Assembly: GCA_963817535.1 (NCBI GenBank)
Contig: CAWFOW010000011.1
Span: 46,754-110,753, forward strand
Direction of reading: 5' to 3'
DNA length: 64,000 nt
Source of the DNA: an uncultured Alphaproteobacteria bacterium
GTDB lineage: Bacteria; Pseudomonadota; Alphaproteobacteria; MPNO01; DASWLB01
The position numbers and the translations under genes were made by a program. The notes beneath the pieces were generated by a model. The model worked only from the letters and a program-made list of their open reading frames with translations, was not told the origin of the DNA and ran no database searches. This document shows, piece by piece, positions 4,358 through 19,815 of the stretch; positions within the stretch are counted from its first letter, which is position 1, and every line of letters begins with the position of its first letter.

Positions 4358-5169
4358 GCGCTGGTGGCGCGATAGCGACCGCGGCGGCGCCGCCGCCGGT
4401 GATCGTGCTGGACAACGTGTCGGTCGAGTTGTCTGGCGAACGCATCTACAATTCCATCGGATTTGCGGTCCGGCCCGGAGAGTTCCTGTGCATCCTGGGC
4501 CCCTCCGGGTGCGGCAAGTCCACCTGCCTGCGCCTGATGGGAGATCTCTTGCAGGCGAACGGCGGGACCGTGCGCGTCGACGGGCGGACCCCCGCCGAAG
4601 CGTGGGACCAGCTCGCCTACGTGTTCCAGGCGCCGCGCCTTGTGCCGTGGCGCACCGCGCTCGGCAATGTGATGCTGGCGATGGAGCTGCGCTTTGGGCG
4701 GGGTGCCAGGCGCGACATGGAGTCGAAGGGCCGCGCGCTGCTGGACCTTGTCGGGCTCGCCAACGATATCGAGAAATATCCCCGGATGCTTTCGGGCGGC
4801 GAGCGCCAGCGCGTCGCCATCGCCCGTGCCCTGGCGGTCGAGCCGAAGATCGTGCTTATGGACGAGCCGTTTTCGGCGCTGGATCTTAACACGCGCCGCC
4901 GGCTACGCGCCCAGATGATCTCGATCTGGGAGGAGACGGGGAAGACCATCGTCTTTGTCACCCATGACATCGACGAAGCGCTGGTCCTGGCCGACCGGAT
5001 CCTGTTGATGTCGAACAAGCCGACGCGCGTGATCGAGACCATCGAGATTGACCGGCCGCGACCGCGCGACCTGGACGGAACGCCCGAGCTTCGCGCTCAT
5101 CGCGACCATCTGCACCGTTTGTTCCGTCAGCTCGAGCCGGGATCCGAGGAAGAAACCCAACCGGGGTGA
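4354..5169 (+). CDS. ABC transporter ATP-binding protein, NitT/TauT (nitrate/sulfonate/bicarbonate) family
   Basis: Walker A GPSGCGKST, signature LSGGERQRVAIARAL, Walker B IVLMDEPFSALD. Start ATG shares ATGA with the RidA stop. Confidence 0.85.
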   Translation: MSAGGAIATAAAPPPVIVLDNVSVELSGERIYNSIGFAVRPGEFLCILGPSGCGKSTCLRLMGDLLQANGGTVRVDGRTPAEAWDQLAYVFQAPRLVPWRTALGNVMLAMELRFGRGARRDMESKGRALLDLVGLANDIEKYPRMLSGGERQRVAIARALAVEPKIVLMDEPFSALDLNTRRRLRAQMISIWEETGKTIVFVTHDIDEALVLADRILLMSNKPTRVIETIEIDRPRPRDLDGTPELRAHRDHLHRLFRQLEPGSEEETQPG

Positions 5170-5198
5170 GTGGACCCCGAAATACGGAGGCAGACGCA

Positions 5199-6185
5199 AT
5201 GAAGCGAACGATTGTCGGCGCGCTCGGCGCGCTTGCGGTGGCCCTGGTCGCCGCCGGCCCGGCCCTCGCAAAGGAAAGGATCAGCTATGCCTACCTGATC
5301 GATCCCGCCCTGGAGGGCATCTTGTACGGCATCAAGTCAGGCAAGGTGCATTCCGACACGGTCGAACTGGTGGCCACACCGCTGCCGATACCCGCGCTGA
5401 TCCAGTCGACAACGACCAAGCAGTACGACGTGATCATGAACGCCGTGCTGTCGATTCCGCGCGCCCTGGAGAAGGGGCTGAGGATGGAAGTGCTGTCGAC
5501 GGCCCTGCGCTCGGTGCCGAGCGCGGTGAGCGGCGCGGCCTGGGTCAAGAAGGACGGGCCCTACAAGACGCTGGCGGACCTGAAAGGCAAGACGATCGGT
5601 GACACATCGCTGCAATCGACCGGCACCATGTGGACGCGCATTGCCATGTGGAAGAAGCACGGCATTAACGTGATGTACGATAATGGCGACTTCAAATGGG
5701 TGCAGCTTCCGGCCTCGGGCCTTCTTGGCGCGGTGCAGACCGGGCGCATCGACGCAGCGAATCTGATCCACCTTCAGGCGTATGAGGCGCTGAAGTCGGG
5801 CAACTACGTCTCGCTCCTGCACACCGCTCAGGACCTCCACGAAATGTTCGGCGTGCGGCAGGTCTCGGCGGTCAATGTCGGTTATCCCGAGAAGCTCAAC
5901 GCGCGGCCCGATGCGTTCAAGGAGTTCGACCGCATGATCAAGGCCACGGTCGATTATGCCAGTGCCCACACGGCCGAAGTCGGCGAGGCGATTGCGAAGG
6001 AGTTCAAGATCTCGCCCGAGTTCTTCGGCTGGTGGCTTAAGAACTATTCGACGTTTCCCGGTGTGGTAAGCGATGGCGATCTGAAGGCCATGGAAGTGGT
6101 TTGGCAGAACGCGCACGATCTGCACGCGATGGGGACGTTCCCGAAGGCCGAGTCGGTCGTCTGGAAGTACGCGATCCGCGAGTAG
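5199..6185 (+). CDS. ABC transporter substrate-binding protein, NMT1/THI5-like (NitT/TauT family)
   Basis: Signal peptide MKRTIVGALGALAVALVAAGPALA and an SsuA/NMT1-like fold. RBS ggagg upstream. Confidence 0.8.
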   Translation: MKRTIVGALGALAVALVAAGPALAKERISYAYLIDPALEGILYGIKSGKVHSDTVELVATPLPIPALIQSTTTKQYDVIMNAVLSIPRALEKGLRMEVLSTALRSVPSAVSGAAWVKKDGPYKTLADLKGKTIGDTSLQSTGTMWTRIAMWKKHGINVMYDNGDFKWVQLPASGLLGAVQTGRIDAANLIHLQAYEALKSGNYVSLLHTAQDLHEMFGVRQVSAVNVGYPEKLNARPDAFKEFDRMIKATVDYASAHTAEVGEAIAKEFKISPEFFGWWLKNYSTFPGVVSDGDLKAMEVVWQNAHDLHAMGTFPKAESVVWKYAIRE

Positions 6186-6194
6186 ACTGGCCCC

Positions 6195-6992
6195 GTGGCG
6201 CGCGCGCTCGAAAACACCCGGAGCAGGTGGACCGCGGGCCGGCGTTCCCGGTTGGCGGCCCACCTGTTCACGCTCGCCGCGCTCGCGGTGTGGCAGCTTT
6301 ATTCGATGACGGTAGAGCCGTTCGTGATGCCCGGCCCGTGGCCGGTGGCGGAACGGCTCTACCAGTTCCTTACGACGTGGAGCCTCGCCAAGCACACGTT
6401 CTACTCGTTCGGGCATATATTTGCGGCAATGGCGATTTCGTTCCTGGTGGGGAGCGGGCTCGCGTTCCTTGCCCATTATGCTCCGGCCTTCCGTCTTGCC
6501 GTGCATGGGCGGCTGAGCCCGTTCCTGAACTCGTTCTCCGGGATCGGCTGGACGCTGCTCGCCATCGTCTGGTTCGGGGTGAACGACCTGACGGTCATTT
6601 TCGCGATCAGCGTGGTGCTGACGCCCTTCGCCATCATCAACATGCGTGAGGGGCTCGAGACGCTGGATTCCGAGCTGTTGGAGATGTCGGCGAGCTTCAC
6701 CCGCCGGCGTGGCCGGGAGTTCACGCGCATCGTGCTTCCGGCTCTGATGCCCTTCATTTTCGCGACGGCGCGGATCAGCTTCGGCGTGTCGTGGAAGGTG
6801 ACGCTGGCTGCCGAGCTGTTCGGCGGGCGCACCGGGCTTGGCTACCTGTTCAACCTGGCGCGTCAGGATTTCGACATGGCGCTGATCCTGGTTGTGATCG
6901 TGGTCATCATCGCCTTCGTCTACGGCACCGACAGGCTGGTCTTCGCACCGCTCCAGGCTCGGCTCGGCCGCCACCACGAGGCGGAACCGTGA
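6195..6992 (+). CDS. ABC transporter permease (NitT/TauT family)
   Basis: Multi-TM protein with the EAA-like loop typical of BPD permeases. GTG start. Confidence 0.8.
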   Translation: MARALENTRSRWTAGRRSRLAAHLFTLAALAVWQLYSMTVEPFVMPGPWPVAERLYQFLTTWSLAKHTFYSFGHIFAAMAISFLVGSGLAFLAHYAPAFRLAVHGRLSPFLNSFSGIGWTLLAIVWFGVNDLTVIFAISVVLTPFAIINMREGLETLDSELLEMSASFTRRRGREFTRIVLPALMPFIFATARISFGVSWKVTLAAELFGGRTGLGYLFNLARQDFDMALILVVIVVIIAFVYGTDRLVFAPLQARLGRHHEAEP

Positions 6993-7774
6993 CCGCCATC
7001 GCCAGCTCCACGCCGCGCCCGCCCCGGCGCAGGCCGTTCACCCAGCGCGCCATCGCGGATGGGCTGGTGATCGCCGTGCTCGTCGGCTGGTGGCTGGCCG
7101 CGCGCCATCTGCCGGAATTCATCCTTCCTGGTCCGGTGAGTATCGCGAAGACCCTGGCGGCGCTGTTCGTCACCCCGTCGCTCCTGGTCGACACGGCCAC
7201 AAGCGCTTTGCGGGTGATCGTGGCGGTGGTCGTGTCCGTCGCACTGGGTGGCGTGCTCGCAATTCTGCCCTATCGTTGGCCGGTGCTCGACGGCATCGTG
7301 CACGACCGCATCAAGCCGTTCCTCAACTCGTTCCCATCGGTGGGCTGGGCGATCCTCGCGATGGTGTGGTTCGGCACGTCATCCATCTCGGTGATTATCG
7401 TCGAGGTGATGATCCTGACGCCGTTCTGCCTGGTGAACGTGTCGGAAGGCATTCGCGAGCTCGACGATGAGCTGCTCGAAATGGGAGAAAGCTTCACCCG
7501 CAGCCGGCCGCGCGTGATGCTCAAGATCGTGGTGCCGCTTTTGTTGCCCTATGCGGTTTCGGCGGTGCGCATCGCCTACGGCGTGGCGTGGAAGATCGCG
7601 CTGGTTGCCGAGCTGTTCGGAGCGACCAGCGGCCTGGGCTATGTGATGCTCAAGGCGGAGATCGTGTCGGACGCCGCGACGGTTTACGCCACCTGCTTCG
7701 CCATCGTGATCCTGTTCCTTGCCGGCGAGAAGCTGGTGATCGATCCCCTGTCGCGCGTGGTGGCCTACAAATGA
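6989..7774 (+). CDS. ABC transporter permease (NitT/TauT family), second subunit
   Basis: Paralog of the preceding permease (shared ...FLNSF...GW..LA.VWFG... pattern). GTG start overlaps the upstream stop (GTGA). Confidence 0.8.
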   Translation: MTAIASSTPRPPRRRPFTQRAIADGLVIAVLVGWWLAARHLPEFILPGPVSIAKTLAALFVTPSLLVDTATSALRVIVAVVVSVALGGVLAILPYRWPVLDGIVHDRIKPFLNSFPSVGWAILAMVWFGTSSISVIIVEVMILTPFCLVNVSEGIRELDDELLEMGESFTRSRPRVMLKIVVPLLLPYAVSAVRIAYGVAWKIALVAELFGATSGLGYVMLKAEIVSDAATVYATCFAIVILFLAGEKLVIDPLSRVVAYK

Positions 7775-7796
7775 ACAGCTACCCCGAAGGAGAGAC

Positions 7797-9425
7797 GTGA
7801 TGATCACCGCGGATTTGCTGCTGAAGAACGGCAACGTGATGACGATTGATGCGATGTCAACGCGGACCGACGCTGTCGCCATCGCGAACGGGCGCATCGT
7901 CGCGCTCGGCAAGGAGGCACAGGAGCTGGCCGGACCCAACACCCAGATCATCGATCTGGGCGGCCGCACGGCCGTTCCCGGGCTGTTCGACAGCCATATC
8001 CACACGATGATGGGCGGGCAGAACGAGCTCGCGGTTTCGCTCGAGGATGCGAAATCCGTCGCCGACGTGCAGAAGGCCTTCGCAGCCCGCGCGCAAGGCG
8101 CTGCGCCCGGGAACTGGATCCTGGGAGGCAGCGGCTGGCACGAAAGCCAGCTCGCCGAGGGGCGCATGCCGCACCGGAAAGAGCTCGACGCAGTAACGCC
8201 GAATAACCCCGTCTTCCTGCGCAGGGGCGGTCACGTCGCGGTCGCGAACAGCGCGGCCCTGAAAATTGCGGGTATCACGAAGGATACGCCCGACCCGCAT
8301 GACGGTGTGATCGGGCGCGATGCAGGCACCAACGAGCCGAACGGCATGCTGGTCGAGCGCGCGGCCTTCACCCAAGTGCTGAAGCACGTGCCGCGCCCGA
8401 CCCGTGGCGACCTGGTCGAGGGGTTGAAGAGATACACCGCGCGCCTCAATAGTCGCGGCATCACGGCGACGTTGGAGCCCGGCATCAGCCTGGACGAGAT
8501 CGCCGCCTACATGGAGCTGTGGCGCCAGGGGAAGATGACCACGCGGGCGCGTATCCTCCAGCGCATCGCATGTGCGGACGATGTGTCGGGCCTCACCCAG
8601 GTGCTGGCACCCGAGTTCGGCGACGACTGGCTGCGCATCGGCGGCTTCAAGTTCATGGCCGACGGCGGCGTGGAAGCGGCCTTTCTGCGCGAGCCCTATC
8701 GCGTGATCGAGGGCGAGCAGAACGACCCCGATTTCGTGGGGAAGATGGTGCTGCCGCCTGGCGGTCTCGACGAGCTGCGCGAGATGCTGATGGTTGCGGC
8801 CGCACAGGGTTGGCAGGTGCAGATCCACATGGTGGGCGACGCTACGATCGACACCATCGTCGGGCTGGTCGAGGAGGTGGCAAGGAAATATCCGGTCGGC
8901 GATATGCGCTGGACCATGATGCACGTCTTCCTGCCGACCGACGAAGCATTGACCAAGATGAAGCGGCTCGGCCTCCGCGCGACGGTGCAGGACCATCCCG
9001 TTAAGCTTGGTCACAACATGCTGCGCTACTGGGGCGAGGAGCGGGCGTCGCGCTCGATCCCGGTGCGGTCGATCCTCGCGGCGGGCATTCCCACCGGCGG
9101 CGGCACCGATGCCCCCGTTGTCGACTGGAATCCGTTCGAATCAATCTGGTGGATGACCACGCGCAAGGTCTTCGCCCAGGGCGGGGTGCGGGTACTCGGC
9201 CCCGACGAGGCAATCGGCCGCGAGGAGGCGCTGCGCCTCTACACGCTGGGCAGCGCCGAGACCTGCTTCATGGAGAGCATCGTGGGTACGATCGAGCCCG
9301 GCAAGCTCGCCGACATTGCGGTGCTCGATGCCGACCCGATGACGGTCGCCGACGATGCGCTGCGCGACATCAAAGCGGCGCTGACCGTCGTCGGCGGCCG
9401 GATCGTTCATCGCGCGGGGGTCTGA
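7797..9425 (+). CDS. Amidohydrolase family protein (Amidohydrolase_3, metal-dependent hydrolase)
   Basis: 542 aa. N-terminal ...IDLGGRTAVPGLFDSHIHTMMGG metal-binding HxH motif and C-terminal GGTDAPV... typical of the Amidohydro_3 family. RBS aaggagag. Confidence 0.8.
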   Translation: MMITADLLLKNGNVMTIDAMSTRTDAVAIANGRIVALGKEAQELAGPNTQIIDLGGRTAVPGLFDSHIHTMMGGQNELAVSLEDAKSVADVQKAFAARAQGAAPGNWILGGSGWHESQLAEGRMPHRKELDAVTPNNPVFLRRGGHVAVANSAALKIAGITKDTPDPHDGVIGRDAGTNEPNGMLVERAAFTQVLKHVPRPTRGDLVEGLKRYTARLNSRGITATLEPGISLDEIAAYMELWRQGKMTTRARILQRIACADDVSGLTQVLAPEFGDDWLRIGGFKFMADGGVEAAFLREPYRVIEGEQNDPDFVGKMVLPPGGLDELREMLMVAAAQGWQVQIHMVGDATIDTIVGLVEEVARKYPVGDMRWTMMHVFLPTDEALTKMKRLGLRATVQDHPVKLGHNMLRYWGEERASRSIPVRSILAAGIPTGGGTDAPVVDWNPFESIWWMTTRKVFAQGGVRVLGPDEAIGREEALRLYTLGSAETCFMESIVGTIEPGKLADIAVLDADPMTVADDALRDIKAALTVVGGRIVHRAGV

Positions 9426-9426
9426 C

Positions 9427-9897
9427 GTGGCGGGGCAGGGGGCCATCCTGTCGGCGCACGGTCGCAACCATGGCGACCTGGTGGCGGCGCGCGACATTGC
9501 ACGCCTGCCGGCGGCGACCGACAACTACCCGCTGCTGACATTCCGCGAAATCTACGCCACCGTCGGAGTCATCGGACTTCGCATCGGCGAGGAGGCGCGG
9601 GCGCTCGACGGCCGGCCCGTGCGGGTGCGCGGGTACATGGCGCCGCCGGTCGCTGACCGCGACAGCTTCTTCATGCTGACGCGGACCCCGTTCGTTACCT
9701 GTCCGTTCTGCGACCCGGCGGCGAGCTGGCCCGATGACGTGGTACTGGCCTGCCTGGAAAAGGACAGTGCCTTCGTCGATCCGACCCTCGCGGTCGAGCT
9801 GGTCGGCGAGCTCGATATCGGTCCGAAGCGCGACCCTCGGACGGGTACGACGCGCTACGTGCGTCTCGTCGATGCGCGCTGGCAGCTGGTGTCTTGA
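9427..9897 (+). CDS. Hypothetical protein, 156 aa, co-transcribed with the amidohydrolase
   Basis: GTG start 2 nt after the amidohydrolase stop. Contains a CPFCD motif. No family recognised. Confidence 0.4.
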   Translation: MAGQGAILSAHGRNHGDLVAARDIARLPAATDNYPLLTFREIYATVGVIGLRIGEEARALDGRPVRVRGYMAPPVADRDSFFMLTRTPFVTCPFCDPAASWPDDVVLACLEKDSAFVDPTLAVELVGELDIGPKRDPRTGTTRYVRLVDARWQLVS

Positions 9898-9966
9898 TGG
9901 TGCGCGCCGCAATCCGCGCGGGGTGAATCTATTCAAAATAAACAGCCTTATTCTTCAAGAACACCA

Positions 9967-10854
9967 ATGACAAATTCTCAAAATCATTTTTATGTCGATT
10001 CGGAAACTGGATCACTCAGCGACGTGTTGCTGTGTGCTCCAGAATATTATGAATGGGTGCCGCACAACGCGGTCACGAGGCGGTCGATGCAGTCCCTCGG
10101 CAGCTTCGACATGCAGGCCGCGCGGGCTCAATTCGCCGAGTTCGAGCAGGCCTTCGCCGAGGCGGGCGTGAACCGTCATTATCTGATGCCGGACGCCTGC
10201 CTTCCCGATCAGCTCTACACGCGCGATACGAGCCTCGTCACGCCGTGGGGTCCGGTCGTGCTGCAGCCGATGCAGCCCCGCCGCCGCGGCGAGGTCGGGC
10301 CGGTGGTCGATTTCTTTGACCGGGCGGGGGTGGCGCGATGGCGCTGGGCGACCGCGGGCTCGGTCGAAGGCGGCGATATCCATATGATCCGGCCCGGCCT
10401 TCTGGTGATCGGCTATTCGGGCGAACGGACCACGATCGAGGGCGCCCAGCAGGTCGGAGGCTGGTTCCGAGACGCCGGGTGGAAGGTCCGCTACGAGAGC
10501 TTTCCCGAGCATTTTCTCCATTTCGACCTGCTCTTTGCCATGGTTGGCGAGGCGTTGGCGGTCGCCTGCATCGAGGCGCTGTCCGAAGACTATCTTGCCT
10601 GGCTCAAACAGAAGAAAATCGACGTCATTCCCGTGTCCTATGGCGAGGCCATGCGCCTCGGCTGCAACCCCCTTTCGCTCGGCGACAGGCGAGTGATCTC
10701 GTCGGCCACGTGCCGCGAGCTGAATCAGCGGCTTCGGGCTGCCGGAATCCGGGTCTACGACCCCGACATCTCGGTGTTCACCGGGGGCGGCGGAGGGCCC
10801 CGCTGCATGTCGATGGCCCTGCGCCGCGAGCCGCTGGCCCGCCCAAGCAATTAG
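9967..10854 (+). CDS. Amidinotransferase-superfamily hydrolase (dimethylarginine dimethylaminohydrolase / arginine deiminase-like)
   Basis: 295 aa. C-terminal catalytic-Cys motif DISVFTGGGGGPRCMSMAL matches the DDAH/ADI GGxxCMS signature. The first ~100 nt are markedly AT-rich. Confidence 0.7.
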   Translation: MTNSQNHFYVDSETGSLSDVLLCAPEYYEWVPHNAVTRRSMQSLGSFDMQAARAQFAEFEQAFAEAGVNRHYLMPDACLPDQLYTRDTSLVTPWGPVVLQPMQPRRRGEVGPVVDFFDRAGVARWRWATAGSVEGGDIHMIRPGLLVIGYSGERTTIEGAQQVGGWFRDAGWKVRYESFPEHFLHFDLLFAMVGEALAVACIEALSEDYLAWLKQKKIDVIPVSYGEAMRLGCNPLSLGDRRVISSATCRELNQRLRAAGIRVYDPDISVFTGGGGGPRCMSMALRREPLARPSN

Positions 10855-10931: not shown

Positions 10932-11978
10932 ATGATCGTCAAGACGTCGGATGTCGAACAATATCGACCTGACGAGAGGCTGAGGCGCGTGAGTAAGATT
11001 CGAATCGACCAATATGTGTCGGGGCCGTCGCCCGATGCGACGATAAGTGTCGCGTCGCCACATGTGCTTGCCGAGGCCGCGGCGATGTGGAAGTTCGCCC
11101 GCCGGGCCGGTTTCGCCGCGGAGCTCAAGGCGCTGCAGCGGCCGCGCGTCGCGCGGTCGGTGACGGCGGCGGTGCTCGACTGGGAGCTGATCGGGCTGGC
11201 GGCGGCTTCCGTCGTCTGGTTGGGCTGGTGGGCGGTGCCGGTCGCGCTGCTGGTCATCGGCAACCGCCAGCGCGCCCTCGGCAACCTGCTGCACGACGCC
11301 TCGCACTGGACGATGGATGGCAACCGGTCCCGGGCGACGGTGCTCGCCAACCTCCTGTTCTGCTGGCCGCTGACCGTGTCGATGGCGGTCTACCGGGCGG
11401 ATCACACCCGGCATCACAAATGCCTCGGCGATCCGGCCGACGACCCCGACTTCATTCACGATCCCGACCGCCTCGCGCGCGGCTGGGTGCGTGTCTGGTT
11501 CGACCAGGTCGGCTCGTGGCGGGGCCTGCGCTCGTCCGTGCTCGGCAATCTCGACCGGATGGAGGGCGCGATGCTGGCCGGCGTGGCCGCATGGTGGTGC
11601 GTCGTTCTCGGTGCGGCGGCCGCCGCGGCGGGACCCTCGGCGGCCTTGGTCTTCCTCGGCCTCTGGGTCGCGGCGCGGGCGACCGTGTTCCATGCGGTCA
11701 CCTGCTTTCGCGAAATCTCCGACCATGTCGGGCTGGTGCCCGGTACGCTGATCGGGTTCAGCCGGAACCATCCGTTCGGCGGGGTGCTGGGCCAACTCGT
11801 GCATCCGCACAACAACGGGTACCACCTGCTGCATCACCTGGACCCCGGCATCCCGTTTCACGCCCTTCCCCGGGCCCACCGGCTGCTGCTGCAATGGCCG
11901 GACTACGCAACGGCCGAACACTGCACGTCCTATTTCGGGGGCGAGGGGAGCGCGGTCCGCTCCTGGGTGTGCCGTTAG
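10932..11978 (+). CDS. Fatty acid desaturase family membrane protein (three His-box di-iron enzyme)
   Basis: His boxes HDASH, HTRHH, HNNGYHLLHH plus hydrophobic TM segments. Confidence 0.75.
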   Translation: MIVKTSDVEQYRPDERLRRVSKIRIDQYVSGPSPDATISVASPHVLAEAAAMWKFARRAGFAAELKALQRPRVARSVTAAVLDWELIGLAAASVVWLGWWAVPVALLVIGNRQRALGNLLHDASHWTMDGNRSRATVLANLLFCWPLTVSMAVYRADHTRHHKCLGDPADDPDFIHDPDRLARGWVRVWFDQVGSWRGLRSSVLGNLDRMEGAMLAGVAAWWCVVLGAAAAAAGPSAALVFLGLWVAARATVFHAVTCFREISDHVGLVPGTLIGFSRNHPFGGVLGQLVHPHNNGYHLLHHLDPGIPFHALPRAHRLLLQWPDYATAEHCTSYFGGEGSAVRSWVCR

Positions 11979-11996: not shown

Positions 11997-12257
11997 TCAC
12001 CGGCGCGCCGCGCGCCAGTCCTCGACCATGGCGGCGAGGGAGGCAAGGGTGTCGAAGCGCTGCGGATCGAACTCGATCTCGGTGAAGTCGACGCCGAACG
12101 CGGTCTCGAGGAATGTGACCAGCTTTATTACCGCCAGCAAGTCGAGGCGGCCGGTCGAGATCAGGGAGGTGGCGTCGGCGAACGGCGCCGAGTCGTTCTG
12201 ATCGCGCAGGAGCTCGGTAAGGTAGGTCCTGATCCTTACCCGATCGTCCTCAGCCAT
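11997..12257 (-). CDS. DltC-like aminoacyl/acyl carrier protein homolog with Leu in place of the phosphopantetheinyl-Ser
   Basis: 86 aa. Four-helix carrier pattern ...ADATSLISTGRLDLLAVIKLVTFLETAFGVDFTEIEF. Start overlaps the MBOAT 3' end by ~22 nt. Confidence 0.6.
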   Translation of the reverse strand: MAEDDRVRIRTYLTELLRDQNDSAPFADATSLISTGRLDLLAVIKLVTFLETAFGVDFTEIEFDPQRFDTLASLAAMVEDWRAARR

Positions 12258-13762
12258 TGATCCATCCCCAGGACATTGAGCAAGAATTCGAGGTGCCAGC
12301 CGAGCGGCGCGTGCGGGAACGGCCCGTCCAGAAACGATAGCAGGCAGAAGAACGTCAACACACCCACCGACGGCAACATCTGGCGCCGCCACCACGGAGC
12401 GTGCGGATCCGCCCGCCGCGGCATGAGCTGGGAGAGGACGATCCCGCCCGCGAGCAGCAGGCAATAGAATGCATAGGTCTGCGACTGGAGCAGACTTTGC
12501 CACATGCCCTGGCTCGCCAGGTCGGGGAGCCTGCGGAATATCTGATGGGACAGGTAGTTGCCGACGCCCGCCGCCATGAACGTGGCGAAGGCCAGCCGCA
12601 GCCGCGGGTGCCGTTTGAAGCAGCGGAGGAACGCCGGGTAGAAGTAGATATGAACCAGCGCTTCCTTGAAATAGTAGTCGTACCGGTTCCAGAACTCGGC
12701 GATGCTGCGTGATGACAATGGTCGGTAAGTATTGCGCAATAGTCTAAATCCCGCCAAACGCGCGAGGGCGACGGCCTTGTGGCCCCAGATCGCGAGGACC
12801 AGCAATCGCTCCGGGAAATTGAGCAGAATTCCCCAGAGCCCGGCCGGACCCGGTCCCTTGCCGGTATCGAGGAAGTGCACGAACGTCTGCGACAGCGGCG
12901 CGATGCCGGCCAGGCCGTAGAAGACGTGGCGCATCAGCCACAGGACGACCGTCAGGACGAACGCCCAGCACAAAAGCTTGAGGCCGGAGAGCTGGGTGGC
13001 CGCCAGTTCCTCGGCCGAGCCGGCCTCGACGCTCCGCCACGACGCGGCACCGCGACCGACCGGCTCGATCACCCAGGGGGCGAAGAAGGGGTGGAAGGCG
13101 GCAAAATGGCGGATCGTCGGCTGGGGCTGGCGGCGCTGCTGATCGAGCAGCGCGTAGCAGAGGAACCAGATGAAGGCCGCCAGCACGGCGGTCAGGCTCC
13201 ACAGCGCCACCTCCGGCAGGCCATGCAGCAGGTTGGCGCAGGCGGCCGCGATCATGGCGAAGCAGGCCAGGTGGACGGCGAGGATCGGCCGCCGCCCGAC
13301 CGGATGGTCGCGCCACTGCCGGGCGAGCCAGAGCACCGCGAGCGCGAGGGGCGCTGCGGCCAGCAGGCTGCCGGCGCGCACCCAGCGTGCCTCGAACATG
13401 CTCTGCAGACCCTGCTGCGCGAGGACCATGGCCTCGAGGCCCGGCGAGAACCAATCCATGTGGATCAGCAGCATGCCGGCACCGCCAACTGCCGCGATCA
13501 AGAAGCGGTGACGGCCGGCCACCCCCGCGACGGACGCGATCAGGGAGACGGTCAGGGCCAGCCTCAGCGAATAGCTGCCCATTAGGTTCAGCAGCACCGC
13601 GAAGGCCAGGAACAGGACCAGCTTGCCGGGGATCGTCTGTGCAAAGGCGACCAGCGCGTCGTCGGTCTCGATCGGCGGCATCCGCCATTTCCAGGGCGGC
13701 TTGCCGAGCCCGGCCTGACGCGCCAGAAGGCCGACGCGGCCGATGAGGGGCGTGGGCGGCAT
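12236..13762 (-). CDS. MBOAT family membrane O-acyltransferase (DltB/AlgI-like)
   Basis: 508 aa, multi-TM. MBOAT signature RSIAEFWNRYDYYFKEALVHIYFYP with the conserved His. Start ATG overlaps the upstream stop (TGATG). Confidence 0.8.
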   Translation of the reverse strand: MPPTPLIGRVGLLARQAGLGKPPWKWRMPPIETDDALVAFAQTIPGKLVLFLAFAVLLNLMGSYSLRLALTVSLIASVAGVAGRHRFLIAAVGGAGMLLIHMDWFSPGLEAMVLAQQGLQSMFEARWVRAGSLLAAAPLALAVLWLARQWRDHPVGRRPILAVHLACFAMIAAACANLLHGLPEVALWSLTAVLAAFIWFLCYALLDQQRRQPQPTIRHFAAFHPFFAPWVIEPVGRGAASWRSVEAGSAEELAATQLSGLKLLCWAFVLTVVLWLMRHVFYGLAGIAPLSQTFVHFLDTGKGPGPAGLWGILLNFPERLLVLAIWGHKAVALARLAGFRLLRNTYRPLSSRSIAEFWNRYDYYFKEALVHIYFYPAFLRCFKRHPRLRLAFATFMAAGVGNYLSHQIFRRLPDLASQGMWQSLLQSQTYAFYCLLLAGGIVLSQLMPRRADPHAPWWRRQMLPSVGVLTFFCLLSFLDGPFPHAPLGWHLEFLLNVLGMDQWLRTIG

Positions 13763-15342
13763 CAGGTGCCTCCGCCGGCCTCGAGCCAATCGAGCAGGGC
13801 GCGCCGGTCAAGCTTGCCGCTGGTCGTCAGCGGCATCGCCGCCAGGATATGAATGGCTGCGGGAACCATGTGCGGCGGAACGCGGCTCCTCAGGGCGTCC
13901 CGCAGCGCCGGTGCAGGGCCGGCCTCGCCGCCGACAAAGCCGACAATGCCCTGGGCGACGCCGTCCGCCACCGGCCACGCGACCGCGGCCACATCTTCGA
14001 CACCGGCCACCACGCGCAGATGCGCCTCGATATCCTCGAGCTCGACCCGGTGCCCGTGGATCTTGATTTGATGGTCAAGCCGGCCGAGGTGGTGAAAACG
14101 ACCGGTTTCGTCCCTCAGCGCAAGGTCGCCGGTCAGGTACCACCGGCGCCCGTCCAGTATGGGGAAACGCTCCGCGGTCAGGTCCGGCGCGCCGAGATAG
14201 CCGATGGCGAGCTGCGCGCCGGCGATGGCGAGCTCGCCAGCCACGTTGTTCGCGACGGGCCGCCGGTCCGGCCCCAGAACCGCCAGCGCGCTGCCGGGGT
14301 GCGGCGTGCCGATCGCCACCACGTCGCGGCCGGGCGTGAGGGCCGGCGTGGCGCCCGGCGCGATCCGCTCGCCGCAGCAATCGACCGTGGCCTCGGTCGG
14401 GCCGTAGAAATTGTCGATCGCGCTGTTGGGCGCGGCCGCCTGCCAGGCGCGCACCGAGGCGAGGGGCAGCGGCTCGCCGCCAAAGGAGGAGTAGCGCAGG
14501 CTGGGTAAGGAACCCGGCGCCAGGGAGCGCGTCTGCCGCATCCAGGTGATCGCGGCCGGGGCCGAGCCCCATACGGTCAGGCGGCGGTCGCGAATGAACC
14601 GGGCGGGCGACACCTGGCTGACCGCCGGAACCACGTGGAGCGACGCGCCGGCCTGCCACGGCAAGAAGATTTCGCCCAGGGACGGATCGAACGACAGCTC
14701 GGTGAATTGGGAGGCGCGGTCCTGCTCGGTCAGCTCTTTGCGGGCCTGCAGCGCGGACAGGTACGCGGCAACCGCGCCGGCGGACACCATGACGCCCTTG
14801 GGCGTGCCGGTGGTTCCCGAGGTGAAGATGACATAGAGCATGTGATCATCGGCCATGTCGGCGGGCGGCTCGAGAGGCTGCGGCTCCGGCAGCGCATCCA
14901 GCGCCAGCACAGAAAGCCCGAGACGATCCGTCCGCAACGCGGCGGCGGCGGAGCCATCGGGCACGAAAGCCAGATGCAGCCGGTCGAGGGTCGTGGGTGT
15001 CAGGCGGCGCACGCCATTGCCGTCGGCGATCACGGCGTCGATTCCGGCGAGGTCGAGCACCGTCTCGATGCGTGCCGCTGGCCAACGCAGCCCGAGGGGC
15101 ACGTAGGTCGCGCCGGCCCAGGCGGCGGCCAGCACCGCCTCCATCGCGACCAGGCTGCGCGAGGCGAGGATGCCGATCCGGCGTCCGGCGCCGTAGCTGC
15201 GGTCGTGCAGCGCAGCAGCCAGACGGCCGCCGCGCCGGGCGAGCTCGCCATAGGACAGGGTGACGCCATCGGCGTCGAGCGCCAGCCGCTCCGGCGCCAG
15301 CCGCGCGCGTTCATAGACTGGCCAGCACGGATTCGTCGTCAT
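13762..15342 (-). CDS. Stand-alone NRPS-type adenylation enzyme (DltA-like aminoacyl-AMP ligase)
   Basis: 526 aa. A-domain cores FTSGTTGTPKGV (A3), FDPSLGEIF (A4), NFYGPTEATV (A5), YLTGDLA (A7), GRLDHQIKIHGHRVELEDIE (A8), PLTTSGKLDRRAL (A10). Confidence 0.85.
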   Translation of the reverse strand: MTTNPCWPVYERARLAPERLALDADGVTLSYGELARRGGRLAAALHDRSYGAGRRIGILASRSLVAMEAVLAAAWAGATYVPLGLRWPAARIETVLDLAGIDAVIADGNGVRRLTPTTLDRLHLAFVPDGSAAAALRTDRLGLSVLALDALPEPQPLEPPADMADDHMLYVIFTSGTTGTPKGVMVSAGAVAAYLSALQARKELTEQDRASQFTELSFDPSLGEIFLPWQAGASLHVVPAVSQVSPARFIRDRRLTVWGSAPAAITWMRQTRSLAPGSLPSLRYSSFGGEPLPLASVRAWQAAAPNSAIDNFYGPTEATVDCCGERIAPGATPALTPGRDVVAIGTPHPGSALAVLGPDRRPVANNVAGELAIAGAQLAIGYLGAPDLTAERFPILDGRRWYLTGDLALRDETGRFHHLGRLDHQIKIHGHRVELEDIEAHLRVVAGVEDVAAVAWPVADGVAQGIVGFVGGEAGPAPALRDALRSRVPPHMVPAAIHILAAMPLTTSGKLDRRALLDWLEAGGGT

Positions 15343-15642: not shown

Positions 15643-15696
15643 CCCCCGCCCGGCCACCCAGACCAGCATACTGTCGTTGGGTGGCCGGGCCGGGGG
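15643..15696. repeat. Strong GC-rich hairpin (18-bp stem, 17-nt loop), REP-like palindromic element
   Basis: ccccgcccggccaccca ...17 nt... tgggtggccgggccggggg. No flanking U-tract on either strand. Confidence 0.5.
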
Positions 15697-15808
15697 AAGC
15701 GGGCCGGCGCGATTCCGCGCGAGCGGAAGATGCACTAGGTCATTTACCCATAAATGGGATTCCCATTTTTTGGGAAGGGTGATTCAGTCTCCTCGAAGGG
15801 AGACCGAG

Positions 15809-16578
15809 ATGGCACGTTTCGATCTGACGGATTTCGAGTGGTCTGTGATCCAGCCACTGCTGCCGAACAAGCCGCGCGGTGTGCCGCGTGTTGACGACCG
15901 CCGGGTGTTGAACGGGATTTTCTGGCGGCTTCGCACCGGCGCGCCGTGGGCCGACATTCCCGAGCGTTACGGTCCGCACACGACCTGCGTGAACCGCTTC
16001 AACCGCTGGCGCAGGGCGGGGGTGTGGGATCGGCTTCTCGAGGCGGTTTCCAAGGCTTACGAGGGCGACATCCAGATGATCAACTCCTCGATCATCCGCG
16101 TGCATCAGCACGCCGCCAACGCCCAAAAAAAGACGACCGATCCCGTTGCATGGGTCGCTCGCGCGGCGGGCTGACGACCAAGATCCATGCGCTGGTCGAT
16201 GCGAACGGCCTGCCGATCGTCCTCAAGCTGACCGAAGGCCAGGCCCATGACGGGCGCAGTGCCGAAGACATGTTCGGCTCTCTTGAAGCCGGCGACATCC
16301 TGCTCGCCGACCGGGCCTACGACAGCGACGCGCTCCGGCGAACCCTCGCCATGCGCGGCGCGTGGGGCAACATCAAGCCCATGCCCGGCCGCACCAACAT
16401 CCCAGCCTTCAGCCCGTTTCTTTACCGCTACCGCAACCTCGTCGAGCGCTTCTTCAACAAGCTCAAGCACTTTCGAGCCGTCGCCACCCGCTACGACAAA
16501 AGACCCGAAAACTACCTCGCATCCGTCAAGCTGGCCGCAGCCCGAATATGGATGCGATTTAATGAGTCGATGACCTAG
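15809..16578 (+). CDS. IS5/IS427-group transposase OrfAB (OrfA 15809-16174; OrfB frame continues to 16578 after programmed -1 frameshift)
   Basis: OrfA begins MARFDLTDFEWSVIQPLLP (DUF4096-type N-terminus). OrfB carries the DDE domain ...RGGLTTKIHALVDANGLPI...LLADRAYDSD... Confidence 0.8.
16126..16132 (+). other. Programmed -1 ribosomal frameshift slippery heptamer A_AAA_AAG
   Basis: In the OrfA frame the codons are CAA AAA AAG. OrfB is in the -1 frame relative to OrfA. Confidence 0.7.
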
Positions 16579-16711
16579 TGAAGCGTGCCCGGGTTGCGAT
16601 GAAGGGGGCAAGTCAGCGTCGCAGTCGTCAACGGCGTCGTCATGGGCAGCCACACCTGCATTGCCCAATGATACCGCGGGACCGTGCTGAGAATGGCGTC
16701 GACCGCGTGGG

Positions 16712-17686
16712 TCACTTGGGCAGGTAGGCCTCGGTGTAGAGCGTTGACATGTCGGGCGTGGATTTCAGGAGCTTCATGTCGAGGAACATGCGCTCCAGGG
16801 TCGCCACGGATTCGTGGCCGAACCTGCAATCGTCGGTGAACATCCCGATCGTGCGATCATAGTCCTTCGACGTGACATCTTCCGAATAGCCGGTCACCGC
16901 GCTTTCGACCTTCACGGTCTCTGCCTTGTGCGACTTCATATAGTGAACGGTCTCGATCCAGCCGGCCAGGAAGGCGCGGATCGCCTCGGGGTTGCTCGCA
17001 ATCAGACGGTTGGACGCGAAGATCATGCCCCCCGCGACCGACCCCATATAGGCAGACACGGGGACCAGCGCGCGGCCGATCTTCTTCTCTTCCATTGCGA
17101 GGAATGTCGACGTGCCACCCATATAGGCGTCGATGATGTGCATACGGAATGCCGAGGCGGATGCCGACGGGCTGCTGCCGATCGGCGCCCGCTTGACGCC
17201 GTCGGGGCCCCAGCCCTGAGTGCGCGTGAGCTCCCGCGCCAGCCAGTCCGTCAGCGAGCCCGCGCTCGAAATGCCGATCGTCTTGCCCTTGAGGTCGTCG
17301 ATCGACTTCAGCGGCGAATCCCACGGCACACCGATGACGAAGGGCAGCTGGGACGCATCCTCACAGATCGCGATCATCGGCGCGCCCTTGACGATGAAGG
17401 CCATCTGAATGCCGGCGCCCACGCCGATGTCGATGCTTCCGGCGGTCAATGCCTGCAGCATCTTGCTGCCGCCCTGGAAATCCAGCACCTCGACATCGAG
17501 CCCGCGCTTCTTGAACATGCCAAGCTTGTCGCCGACATTGGCTGCCAAATTGGATTCTGACGTCGCCGCGGATTTGCCGACGACCAGTTTTGTCGCGGCG
17601 CGGGCCGGCGCCGACGTCGCGAGCGCCCCGGCAAGTATGACGGCGAGCGCCGCCCGAATGGTGACAGGCACGCCGTGGTTCCACAT
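16712..17686 (-). CDS. NMT1/SsuA-like periplasmic substrate-binding protein (orphan; paralog of 22636-23610)
   Basis: Signal peptide MWNHGVPVTIRAALAVILAGALATSAPARA. About 60% identical by eye to the 22636 protein. Confidence 0.8.
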   Translation of the reverse strand: MWNHGVPVTIRAALAVILAGALATSAPARAATKLVVGKSAATSESNLAANVGDKLGMFKKRGLDVEVLDFQGGSKMLQALTAGSIDIGVGAGIQMAFIVKGAPMIAICEDASQLPFVIGVPWDSPLKSIDDLKGKTIGISSAGSLTDWLARELTRTQGWGPDGVKRAPIGSSPSASASAFRMHIIDAYMGGTSTFLAMEEKKIGRALVPVSAYMGSVAGGMIFASNRLIASNPEAIRAFLAGWIETVHYMKSHKAETVKVESAVTGYSEDVTSKDYDRTIGMFTDDCRFGHESVATLERMFLDMKLLKSTPDMSTLYTEAYLPK

Positions 17687-17745
17687 CGCCGTCCTTCCCC
17701 TCGTTGTCGGCGTCTGGTGGTGTGCCCTGTGGCACGCCGCCCCGA

Positions 17746-18783
17746 TCAGCCCCGCAAATATCCGCGATCGCGATAGAAGCGCTCGGCGCCCGGATGCAGC
17801 GGTGCACCGCGCGGAGTCTCCGGATCGGGCGTGCAGAGCTGCACCATGTCCAGTGGCCGGAAATTGTCAGTCGGGATGACAAGCTTGCGCGCCTCGATCG
17901 CCTCGCACAGCGCGTAGGCGACGTCGTCCTCCATGTCGGCGTGGACAATCATCGGCCAGCCAGAGAAGTCGACGGCCGTGACCGGCGCGCTGAGGGCGGG
18001 GATGCGCTCTTTCGTCAGATTGATCATGTCGAATCCTTCTGCGGAAAGGCGCGCGTTCACCGCCCCCTCGACCGGCAGGATGCGGAAGCCGTGTTCGAGC
18101 GCGAACTGTCCCCAGCTCAGCAGGCCCTCGTCGAACACGGCGTCGATTTCGCCCTTGCGGATCATTTCGGCGCGATGCGGATGGCTGGGGCGCGAGACGG
18201 AGTGGACCGTACCGCCCCAGGCACGGATGTCGTCGAACGAGAATCCCGACGCCGACATCAGGGCGTTGACCGACAGCATGGTCGGGTCCTCGTCGAACGG
18301 CGGCGCAATTGGGGTGCCGGTCGAGATGCGCAGCGGCGGGCGCCGCTCCCGAATTTGCTCGAGCGAGGTGATGCCGGTCAATTCGTGGACGGCGATGACC
18401 ACGGCGTCCCAGGACGGGAACACCGCGATCGCGCGCAAGGGGAGGGGGCTCTCGAAAGGCGCACATCCCTTGTAGGCGAGGGCGAGCGGCGCGTTGGGGT
18501 TGATCCAGAGCAGCGAGAGGTCTTTTCGTGCGACCCTCAGCAGGTTGTCACGCGAGCCTCCGATCCCGAACGACAGGCCCAGCCCGACGTCAGACGGCGA
18601 ATCGCGTCGGGACTCGATCCGCATCGACAGGTTCGTGCCGAGGCGGGAATCGATCTGGGGGACGTTCGTGCCGCTGCGGGTGGAGCGGCGGGAGAGCGAC
18701 GTGTCGTAGAGCGCCGCCGCCAGCTCGAGAAGACCTTTCGAACGCTGGATGCCCGAGTTGTAACGGGTCGGTATCTCGACCAT
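17746..18783 (-). CDS. TAXI-family-like SBP-fold protein without signal peptide (paralog of 23654-24625)
   Basis: C-terminal ...VDFSGWPMIVHAD...APLHPGAERFYRDRGY resembles the TAXI HPGA..Y signature. N-terminus MVEIP... has no hydrophobic leader. Confidence 0.55.
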   Translation of the reverse strand: MVEIPTRYNSGIQRSKGLLELAAALYDTSLSRRSTRSGTNVPQIDSRLGTNLSMRIESRRDSPSDVGLGLSFGIGGSRDNLLRVARKDLSLLWINPNAPLALAYKGCAPFESPLPLRAIAVFPSWDAVVIAVHELTGITSLEQIRERRPPLRISTGTPIAPPFDEDPTMLSVNALMSASGFSFDDIRAWGGTVHSVSRPSHPHRAEMIRKGEIDAVFDEGLLSWGQFALEHGFRILPVEGAVNARLSAEGFDMINLTKERIPALSAPVTAVDFSGWPMIVHADMEDDVAYALCEAIEARKLVIPTDNFRPLDMVQLCTPDPETPRGAPLHPGAERFYRDRGYLRG

Positions 18784-18810
18784 CTCTCACTCCGACGTGG
18801 ACGGCGCTCT

Positions 18811-19815
18811 CTACTTCGTGACCCCCAGCTTGGCGAGTTCGGCCCGGTAGGCTTCAATCACCTTTTCGCCGTCTGGTGTGGCCTTGAGCCATTGCTCCAC
18901 GACCGGCCGCATCACCTTGCGAAGCTCGCCAAGATCCGAGTCGGACATCTCCGTCACGGTCTGGTGCGCGGCCTCGACCTTTTTTACGCCCATGTCGGTC
19001 TCCTCCTGCGCCGACTTGCCGAGGCTCATCGACAGCTTCAGGCCGGTCGTCGCGTCGAAAACCTTGCGCACATCCTCGGGCAGCTTCGCGTGAGACTCCT
19101 TGTTCATCAGGAGGTACTCCGTCGTCTGACCCAGCGGCGCATTGAGATAGTAGCTCGCCACCTCGGTCAGCTTGTAGGCGGCGACGGCCGCCATTCCGAC
19201 CGTGGCGCCGTCCACCAGCCCACGCTGCATTGCCTGGTAGATTTCGGGCGTAGCGAGTGTGATCGGCGCGCCGCCGAGGACCTCGATCTCCTGGCCATAG
19301 ATGCGCGACGTGACGCTGATCTTCAGGCCGTTCACGTCGCCGATCTTTCGCAGCTCGCGGCGCGAGATGATCGCGGTCGGCGGGAAGCACGAGAAGCCGA
19401 GCGGACGGACCTTCTCGTACTCGTCGGCGATCACGCCGCTGGTGTAGAGCGCCCAGACCGCCTGGGTGCATTGGGCCCCCGTGGCGGGAAAGCCCGGCAG
19501 GGCGGTCACACTCGTCTTCTGAAAGGTCTTGCCCATTATGCCATGCAGCCCGAACACGATATCGGCGACGCCATTCAGCATCCGGTCGTAGCCGTTGCGG
19601 TGCGAGGCGAGCGTACCGCCGGCAAAGATCTGGATCTTGAGCTGTCCGTGTGTCGCCTTCTCGATCTCGTTCGCCCAGGGCACCAGGGTTCCGCCGTAGA
19701 AGTGCGACACGGGCGGCGGCGGGAAGCCGAGCTTCAGCGTGATAGGCGGGGCTGCGTAGGCGGCGAGCGGGGCCACGACGGCGAGCGCAGCGACAACGGG
19801 CCTCAGGATACGCAT
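18811..19815 (-). CDS. TRAP-transporter DctP-family periplasmic solute-binding protein (orphan, no DctQM)
   Basis: Signal peptide MRILRPVVAALAVVAPLAAYA. DctP-like ...LKLGFPPP... Confidence 0.8.
   Translation of the reverse strand: MRILRPVVAALAVVAPLAAYAAPPITLKLGFPPPPVSHFYGGTLVPWANEIEKATHGQLKIQIFAGGTLASHRNGYDRMLNGVADIVFGLHGIMGKTFQKTSVTALPGFPATGAQCTQAVWALYTSGVIADEYEKVRPLGFSCFPPTAIISRRELRKIGDVNGLKISVTSRIYGQEIEVLGGAPITLATPEIYQAMQRGLVDGATVGMAAVAAYKLTEVASYYLNAPLGQTTEYLLMNKESHAKLPEDVRKVFDATTGLKLSMSLGKSAQEETDMGVKKVEAAHQTVTEMSDSDLGELRKVMRPVVEQWLKATPDGEKVIEAYRAELAKLGVTK

Follow-up and report, generated by a model that had tools for sequence, protein, structure and literature searches.

Within the genome of an uncultured alphaproteobacterium (GenBank assembly GCA_963817535.1, contig CAWFOW010000011.1, positions 46,754 to 110,753) we analysed a stretch of 64,000 nucleotides, referred to as the window in the following and numbered from its first base. 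It contains a compact cassette of three genes on the minus strand, encoding an adenylation enzyme (A), a polytopic membrane protein (M) and a small carrier protein (C), and a fourth gene encoding a membrane-bound oxygenase (Des), which converges on them from the plus strand. The genes and the codons of particular interest are:

13762-15342, minus strand: A, stand-alone adenylation enzyme of the non-ribosomal peptide synthetase (NRPS) type, 526 aa
12236-13762, minus strand: M, polytopic membrane protein of an unannotated family with the predicted fold of the membrane-bound O-acyltransferases (MBOAT), 508 aa
12662-12694, minus strand: codons of the M motif F357-W-N-R-Y-D-Y-Y-F-K-E367, presumed counterpart of W285-N-R-W-H289 in DltB
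12545-12547, minus strand: codon of M His406, presumed catalytic histidine of MBOATs
11997-12257, minus strand: C, carrier protein resembling DltC and peptidyl carrier proteins (PCP), 86 aa
12138-12140, minus strand: codon 40 of C, TTG (Leu), where the family has TCG (Ser) as phosphopantetheine site
10932-11978, plus strand: Des, GntB-like integral-membrane di-iron oxygenase, open reading frame (ORF) of 348 aa, convergent with C

The three minus-strand genes are tightly packed. The stop codon TGA of A and the start codon ATG of M have one base in common (TGATG), and C begins 22 nt before the stop codon of M, an overlap which was seen again in the loci L007 and L008/L009. The GC content at third codon positions (GC3) amounts to 0.86-0.87 for A, M and C within a window of 66% GC and thus shows the strong bias typical of real genes. 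For a comparison with other bacteria one genome per species was scanned, whereby 381 genomes encoding a relative of M were detected and 79 loci were taken for examination. In 68 of these 79 loci A, M and C were found together, and as this order recurs in other species, the arrangement is not due to chance. A preliminary description of the locus, made from the sequence alone, had proposed three translationally coupled genes with exactly these overlaps, which is borne out by the coordinates as well as by the recurrence. It had also called for a survey of genome neighborhoods for triads of this kind lacking DltD, and the 68 loci are the outcome.

The hosts belong to the Alpha-, Beta-, Gamma- and Deltaproteobacteria, the Acidobacteriota (Bryobacterales, Terriglobales), the Nitrospirota, the Desulfobulbaceae/Desulfobacterota and the Gemmatimonadota. 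Cultured representatives include Variovorax humicola, Shinella kummerowiae, Bradyrhizobium neotropicale, Rhizobium sp. BK376, Nitratireductor sp. XY-223 and Mesorhizobium sp. KR2-14. With relatives of M in 381 species-level genomes, the rarity among Gram-negative bacteria which was assumed before can no longer be upheld. When all ORFs up to 7 kb from M in both directions were clustered for the 79 loci, A, C and, in one subclade, Des emerged as the only conserved partners. Among these conserved neighbors no gene encoding an SGNH protein of the DltD, PatB or AlgJ type was present. A conserved small ORF resembling DltX was not found either in a search covering the region upstream of A, and the acyl-shuttle motif FxYxxF (searched as F.Y..F in the last 60 aa of M) occurred in none of the 79 proteins. 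This motif and the SGNH partner define the bacterial MBOAT-SGNH systems, Dlt included (PMC12148441). The absence of a DltD or DltX partner, remarked upon for the window earlier, therewith extends to the related loci.

Several loci deviate from the common arrangement. In two loci of Bryobacterales (L070, 2638-9669; L076, 1955-9410) two full A-M-C triads each are located back to back and divergently oriented, and a metagenome-assembled genome (MAG) of the Terriglobales (L055, 6206-9461) carries two adjacent M genes. Four loci (L017, L021, L022 and L023) contain an M gene at approximately 7900-9450, with a product about 50% identical to that of the window and no A, C or Des nearby. They derive from a MAG labelled uncultured Streptomycetaceae (L017), an uncultured betaproteobacterium (L021), a Burkholderiales MAG (L022) and a Burkholderiaceae MAG (L023). 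In L021 a shortened, frame-shifted remnant of a carrier gene is preserved at 9532-9921. In some lineages the cassette seems to decay, or M seems to be re-used alone.

M belongs to a family which is hidden from current domain models. Pfam detected no domain in M, and the MBOAT families PF03062 and PF13813 gave no match even at E up to 10. Likewise, the Pfam and NCBIfam models for MBOATs and DltB recognized none of 56 close and seven distant relatives of M. With the DltB equivalog model TIGR04091 M reached 13.4 bits over 38 residues (cutoff 375), and this weak partial match falls on the region of the FWNR motif. All 306 database relatives are unnamed or designated “hypothetical protein,” and for none of them a Pfam domain is on record. 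A profile of the M family retrieved 850 sequence clusters among 1.84 billion representatives and, as far as the sequences indicate, seems to stop short of the large canonical MBOAT families; it found no match among the PDB sequences at E up to 10. A tblastn search of M against plasmids returned no matches.

The predicted structure was more informative. An AlphaFold model of M calculated from an alignment of 56 sequences (pLDDT 89.2, pTM 0.87) unambiguously adopts, as a prediction, the MBOAT fold. Foldseek returned seven matches at E 0.001 or better, which represent DltB, PORCN and HHAT, and DltB was the top structural match by two methods; further strong matches were MBOAT7, LPCAT3 and DGAT1. 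The sequence identity between M and DltB is 12%, and M is about 90 aa longer. Conservation of motifs was scored over 79 family members with 31-54% identity to the M of the window. In all 79 proteins N359, R360, Y364, F365, K366 and E367 are invariant. His406 is the sole invariant histidine of M, it is located in a predicted helix (386-410), and G401 and N402 are invariant in its vicinity. Since N359 and R360 lie 47 residues upstream of it, M has the arrangement that characterizes MBOATs, an invariant histidine in a membrane helix and a conserved polar motif about 35-47 residues upstream. The active site of DltB comprises W285, W288, H289 and the invariant H336 (PMC11035591). Judging from motif and spacing, the FWNRY motif of M would be the counterpart of W285-N-R-W, and H406 that of His336. 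Position 362, which corresponds to H289 of DltB, is variable (Y, F or D). Of the earlier assignment of M to the DltB/AlgI-type MBOATs with an FWNR...H signature, the fold, the FWNRY motif and H406 stand, whereas membership by sequence profile does not. M also lies outside the AlgI/PatA clade of polysaccharide O-acetylases, and with a carrier gene adjoining it in 68 of the 79 loci, a function independent of a carrier, which had been considered as a possible refutation, did not emerge.

A was readily classified. It contains the Pfam domains AMP-binding (227.7 bits) and AMP-binding_C (29.9 bits), with 329 bits it exceeds the cutoff (317.4) of TIGR01733, the model for amino-acid adenylation, and the core motifs A3-A10 are readable in its translation, which confirms the stand-alone NRPS-type enzyme described before. 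The DltA equivalog models were missed by a wide margin (TIGR01734, 210.2 bits, cutoff 559.85; NF003417, 218.6 bits, cutoff 476). The best fatty-acid ligase model gave 176.5 bits (cutoff 476) and ranked clearly behind the models for amino-acid adenylation and NRPSs, so that the suspicion that A might group with the fatty-acyl-AMP ligases was not substantiated. The nearest solved structures are NRPS adenylation domains (LgrA, 8xjz, 8k4r), followed by AlmE (4oxi) with 239 bits; DltA reached 159 bits.

The specificity-conferring code, the extraction of which had been suggested earlier, was determined by anchoring the ten Stachelhaus positions on the core motifs, checking them against an alignment with LgrA and comparing them across the loci; one copy per locus was used, also at the paired triads L070 and L076. 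In the order of GrsA the residues D219, P220, G223, G259, S286, G288, F312, V320, D321 and K510 result in the code DPGGSGFVDK. D219 and K510, which correspond to Asp235 and Lys517 in GrsA numbering, are retained in the window as well as in each of the 59 relatives that were compared. Together with the TIGR01733 match these residues make A an NRPS-type amino-acid adenylation domain. Elsewhere in the family the codes are diverse and mostly lined by bulky residues (DIFFLSLVVK, DLHLVCIVIK, DLFFLCLLAK, DHFFLALVDK, DVQIIGHVCK). The universal Asp235 and Lys517 combined with codes varying between clades suggest that the family activates alpha-amino acids and that the substrate has diversified. In the clade containing Des every locus has the code DPGGSG[LF]VDK. 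The presence of Des thereby coincides with a fixed pocket lined by Gly, Gly, Ser and Gly, which is unusually open and has an acidic residue at its end; judged by its residues, this pocket would suit a long side chain of polar or cationic nature, e.g., that of hydroxy-arginine. The code would resemble the arginine code DPWGFGLVDK of McyC from microcystin biosynthesis at eight of ten positions, a likeness which serves as a lead only.

Only 103-156 bits against A of the window were reached by the adenylating enzymes which accompany M and C in B. neotropicale and Mesorhizobium sp. KR2-14. These triads may use another class of adenylate-forming enzymes, perhaps with a substrate other than an amino acid. 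The genes are located as follows:

L049, 6370-7917: low-scoring adenylating enzyme
L028, 9678-11255: low-scoring adenylating enzyme

C scored 18.4 bits with the Pfam model PP-binding (PF00550), which is below the cutoff of 20.8. Eight database homologs are 56-81% identical, and for five of them PF00550 is on record. In a comparison with PDB sequences C aligned with peptidyl and D-alanyl carrier proteins, including 1dv5 (E 5e-5). The DltC equivalog models were not reached (TIGR01688, 15.3 bits, cutoff 52.35; NF003464, 19.1 bits, cutoff 68). The serine to which PF00550 carriers attach their phosphopantetheine arm is a constant feature of the C family, being present in 67 of 67 other loci and in the eight closest database homologs; the copy of the window lacks it and is considered separately below.

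Des ends 18 nt from the stop codon of C. The gene call of NCBI starts at 11085 and results in a protein of 297 aa, which is likely the true start. The same tail-to-tail orientation of Des and C was found in Azonexus, in Chromatiales, in Acidobacteriota and in marine loci, whose other neighbors all differ. Des is present in 11 of the 12 loci of the genome scan which have the A code of the window and in no locus with another code, and it is absent from triads whose M is only about 35% identical. The cultured strains V. humicola KACC 18501 and S. kummerowiae CCBAU 25048 belong to this group without Des. Within the subclade of the window Des constitutes a fourth, conserved gene of the cassette.

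In the source databases Des is named “fatty acid desaturase.” It matches the Pfam family FA_desaturase (PF00487) above the cutoff, possesses the invariant histidine boxes and is predicted to have the desaturase/AlkB fold, so that its membership in this superfamily is well founded. The best NCBIfam model of Des is GntB (NF041365), approximately 100 bits ahead of any other. Des and three orthologs scored 120-138 bits with this model, two of the orthologs in a single stretch over nearly the whole model, as opposed to 31 bits or less with the carotene hydroxylase CrtR and 18 bits or less with DesA/DesB. GntB, the L-arginine gamma-hydroxylase of the guanitoxin pathway, is a transmembrane enzyme which acts on the free amino acid (bioRxiv 10.1101/2023.03.21.533663). 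In view of these scores, the preliminary proposal that a desaturase beside the module suggests a lipid target appears weak. The resemblance of Des to GntB and its co-occurrence with a fixed A code rather make a hydroxylated amino acid a more likely substrate than a lipid, as far as this can be judged from sequence. Moreover, a gene for an ACT domain, a type which binds amino acids, adjoins Des in L002-L005, and this also points to amino-acid chemistry.

Altogether, small ACT_7-domain proteins of 134-146 aa are encoded next to Des in seven loci of the Des clade; the window has none. Examples are:

L002, 12753-13157: ACT_7 gene
L005, 10791-11231: ACT_7 gene
L025, 5875-6303: ACT_7 gene

Taken together, we propose that the cassette carries out a carrier-dependent aminoacyl transfer by an enzyme of MBOAT fold, which follows a Dlt-like design and constitutes a separate, unannotated family found mostly in diderm bacteria. 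We assign a probability of roughly 0.7 to this reading. In the postulated reaction sequence Des would first hydroxylate an amino acid in its free form; the analogy with GntB would point to arginine or to another amino acid that is long and polar or basic. A would adenylate the amino acid and load it as a thioester onto the phosphopantetheine arm of C, as expected from its homologs. The loaded carrier would then dock to M at the cytoplasmic face, and M would use H406 to transfer the aminoacyl group to a hydroxyl or an amine of an acceptor situated either within the membrane or on its periplasmic side. This final acceptor, which could be a lipid, a glycan or a protein, is probably acylated by M directly, as is the case with eukaryotic MBOATs. 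Such a direct transfer is probable because no SGNH partner, no DltX microprotein and no FxYxxF motif were found. That the substrate is a hydroxylated basic amino acid such as hydroxy-arginine is a tentative suggestion, for which we see well under even odds.

The preliminary description had considered the locus a Dlt-type module. Its architecture indeed agrees with the Dlt system (DltABCD/DltX) in the stand-alone adenylation enzyme, the MBOAT-fold protein, the DltC-like carrier, the A-B-C gene order and the coupled translation, but with all DltA, DltB and DltC equivalog scores under cutoff it is not a dlt orthologue. DltD as SGNH protein, DltX and the FxYxxF shuttle of Dlt were not found here, and the residue of M corresponding to His289 in DltB is variable. 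The adenylation enzyme is no DltA equivalog and has a code which differs between clades, the hosts are mostly diderms, and one subclade adds a GntB-like oxygenase. The likeness to Dlt therefore lies on the donor side, with adenylation enzyme, carrier and MBOAT, and not on the acceptor side, where neither a shuttle motif nor an SGNH protein was found.

Three further systems were compared. AlmEFG of Vibrio cholerae, which attaches glycine to lipid A (PMC4278540), likewise operates in a Gram-negative host with a DltA-like adenylation enzyme and a DltC-like carrier, and AlmE is closer to A than DltA is. It differs in that no AlmG-type gene is conserved beside the triad and in that the code of A is not of the small-pocket glycine type. 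The transferase AlmG itself we take to be a lipid A acyltransferase of the LpxL type and not an MBOAT. In PatA/PatB, AlgI/AlgJ and WssH/WssI an MBOAT-fold enzyme also moves acyl groups from a cytoplasmic thioester across the membrane (PMC12148441). These MBOAT-SGNH systems, however, depend on acyl-CoA, a tyrosine shuttle in the C-terminal FxYxxF motif and an SGNH partner, none of which was found here. GntB shares with Des the best model match and the histidine boxes of the FA_desaturase type, whereas the genomic context is entirely different and no GntC-type cyclase is encoded beside Des. The cassette differs from each of Dlt, AlmEFG and the MBOAT-SGNH systems in a defining component. The aminoacyl-phosphatidylglycerol synthases of the MprF type, which transfer amino acids onto membrane lipids, could hypothetically be functional analogs; MprF uses aminoacyl-tRNA and has an unrelated fold, and its structure appeared among the non-significant Foldseek matches of M (E 1.7). 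In the literature searched no description of an A-MBOAT-carrier triad in Gram-negative bacteria was found.

A number of observations weigh against the proposed aminoacyl transfer. The connection of M with the MBOATs is based on a predicted structure at 12% identity, with which the sequence profiles do not concur. Des, with 127.6 bits, stays well below the GntB equivalog cutoff of 380, and it could act on a different substrate, the product of M among them. For DPGGSG[LF]VDK no verified match was found among the adenylation-domain codes published in the literature. An SGNH protein or another partner could be encoded elsewhere in the genome. From gene content, folds and conservation patterns we infer every chemical step, among other things which amino acid is activated, what accepts it and in which direction it is transferred. 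Finally, the copy of C in the window lacks the attachment serine, and an insertion sequence (IS) is located upstream of the operon.

This last point raises the question whether the locus of the window is functional at all. C reads GRLD-L40-LAV, with Leu40 opposite the serine of DltC. Two near-identical assemblies, L089 (99.8% identity over 21.6 kb) and L090 (98.4%), both have the serine and read AAC TCG where the window reads GAC TTG. With respect to the preliminary description, the 86-aa carrier resembling DltC is confirmed by the alignment, but the replacement of its phosphopantetheine serine by leucine had been overlooked, as had the following element:

15733-16580, plus strand: IS5-family element of 848 bp, 390 nt upstream of the A start, outside the system, could affect expression

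The element is bounded by imperfect inverted repeats of 22 nt (15733-15754 and 16559-16580). Its transposase is encoded by two overlapping ORFs (15677-16174 and 15946-16578; 136 and 152 bits with NF033580), as expected for a programmed frameshift. The nearest DNA matches, with about 79% identity, are alphaproteobacterial plasmids of Sphingobium, Aminobacter and Methylobacterium.

It is quite possible, if short of an even chance, that the copy of the window is a decaying, non-functional locus, which would be compatible with any other reading of the system. Beside the invariance of the lost serine in 67 of 67 other loci and in both near-identical assemblies, the IS5 element as well as the decayed versions elsewhere, namely the loci with M alone and the shortened carrier remnant of L021, speak for it. 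Furthermore, three substitutions private to the window (12139, 12143 and 12194) cluster within 56 nt of the C gene. On the other hand, none of A, M and Des is truncated, their conserved motifs are all present and their codon bias is normal, and the IS interrupts no gene and is found at the same place in L089, whose carrier retains the serine. At 12194 a short-read contig which is otherwise identical over 3.5 kb disagrees with the window; it ends one base before 12143. Owing to this disagreement an error of base calling or assembly is possible, and the copy of the window may be either inactive or mis-called. The private substitutions stand in similar sequence contexts, and the motif around them is not depleted in the window overall.

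Between 4434 and 24267 the window and L089 differ at 42 positions, many of them in or next to TCGA or TCG (TCG vs. TTG, TCGA vs. TCAA) and in both directions. A methylated motif that is miscalled in long-read assemblies could account for these differences, as could hot spots of deamination, and the pattern bears on the question whether the exchange of serine for leucine in C is real.

Of the rival explanations which concern the system as a whole, a small natural-product pathway survives best, although we consider it unlikely. A and C would then form a minimal NRPS loading module, and M would esterify the amino acid onto a small, possibly secreted molecule in place of an envelope component. NRPS modules are the nearest relatives of A, GntB-type hydroxylases are known from a toxin pathway, and both the diversification of the A codes between clades and the occurrence of two triads in some genomes (L070, L076) are typical of secondary metabolism. 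No condensation, thioesterase or other genes for NRPSs or polyketide synthases are conserved beside the triad, however; A and C have only an integral membrane transferase as a conserved companion, and the compact unit of three genes is embedded in varied neighborhoods of the housekeeping type.

Even less probable is a pathway of lipid remodelling, in which A as a fatty-acyl-AMP ligase would load an acyl carrier protein, Des would desaturate or hydroxylate the acyl chain and M would act as an O-acyltransferase of the LPCAT or DGAT type. The Pfam family, the desaturase/AlkB fold and the database name of Des would be in line with it, as would the strong structural matches of M with MBOAT7, LPCAT3 and DGAT1. 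It is contradicted by A, which passes the amino-acid adenylation model, ranks lower and far under the cutoffs with the fatty-acid ligase models and has an invariant Asp for binding the alpha-amino group. The scores of Des with GntB and with DesA/DesB (120-138 against 18 bits or less) speak against it as well, and C resembles DltC and PCPs and not the acyl carrier proteins of fatty-acid synthases.

That the cassette is a true dlt orthologue for D-alanylation, comparable to the dra locus of Bordetella, with dltD and dltX lost or relocated, is highly improbable in spite of the A-B-C gene order, the position of DltB as closest solved structure of M, the alignment of C with the D-alanyl carrier protein 1dv5 and the weak TIGR04091 match on the FWNR region, for the equivalog scores are far under the cutoffs (210 vs. 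560 for DltA, 13 vs. 375 for DltB and 15 vs. 52 for DltC), A is nearer to NRPS adenylation domains and AlmE than to DltA, the A codes differ between clades with a wide-open pocket in that of the window, no DltD or DltX was found at any of the 79 loci, and the 850 clusters reached by the M profile do not appear to include the canonical MBOAT families. The OlsHI pathway of ornithine lipids was rejected as a candidate: NF052616, the best NCBIfam match of C, gave 36.9 bits against a cutoff of 130, and its partners, the GH3-like OlsH and the alpha/beta-hydrolase OlsI (PMC12493201), are unrelated to the adenylation domain and the MBOAT found here.

The surroundings of the cassette contain further features. 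On the far side of Des a block of genes is located on the plus strand:

5166-10854, plus strand: block encoding an NMT1-type binding protein, an ABC permease, an Amidohydro_3 enzyme, a 156-aa protein and a DDAH-fold enzyme
7797-9425, plus strand: Amidohydro_3 enzyme
9427-9897, plus strand: 156-aa protein without assigned family
9967-10854, plus strand: enzyme of the DDAH/arginine-deiminase fold

This block looks like a pathway for the uptake and breakdown of a guanidino compound, which is suggestive in view of the presumed arginine-type chemistry of Des. It was rejected as part of the system, as the DDAH-like enzyme, the amidohydrolase and the ABC transporter accompany the cassette in this species only. 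Around the cassette (16712-19815 and 5166-6185) there are paralogous genes for periplasmic binding proteins, three of the NMT1/THI5 and one of the DctP type, mostly without an adjacent permease. In the interval from the start codon of A to the left IS end a GC-rich inverted repeat of 18 nt is located at 15643-15695 (94% complementary, loop of 17 nt), for which Rfam gave matches at chance level only; it may be an old terminator or an element resembling repetitive extragenic palindromes (REP). Scans of the cassette and its leader with Rfam and for promoters and terminators likewise resulted in chance-level matches only.

To our knowledge, carrier-dependent aminoacylation by an MBOAT is known essentially from the Dlt pathway of Gram-positive bacteria, which is an antibiotic target. 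Here a separate family, annotated only as “hypothetical protein,” is present in at least 381 species-level genomes of bacteria from soil, water and wastewater. Understanding the cassette would disclose which groups are added to the envelope of diderm bacteria by such a route. It could also put to the test the direct acylation of a final acceptor by a bacterial MBOAT, and amino acids of the hydroxy-arginine type might turn out to have a use beyond the biosynthesis of toxins. As the triad is present in cultured strains, the question is open to experiment. In a more far-reaching and more speculative form, to which we give still less credence than to the suggested substrate, M would represent a new class of bacterial MBOATs, which transfer an aminoacyl group from a dedicated carrier directly onto a membrane lipid or envelope glycan of diderms, without a tyrosine shuttle or an SGNH protein. 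The amino acid would be determined by A and would here be a hydroxylated basic one made by Des, e.g., gamma-hydroxy-arginine. If true, this would constitute a tRNA-independent route to a cationic modification of the envelope in hundreds of environmental Proteobacteria and Acidobacteriota.

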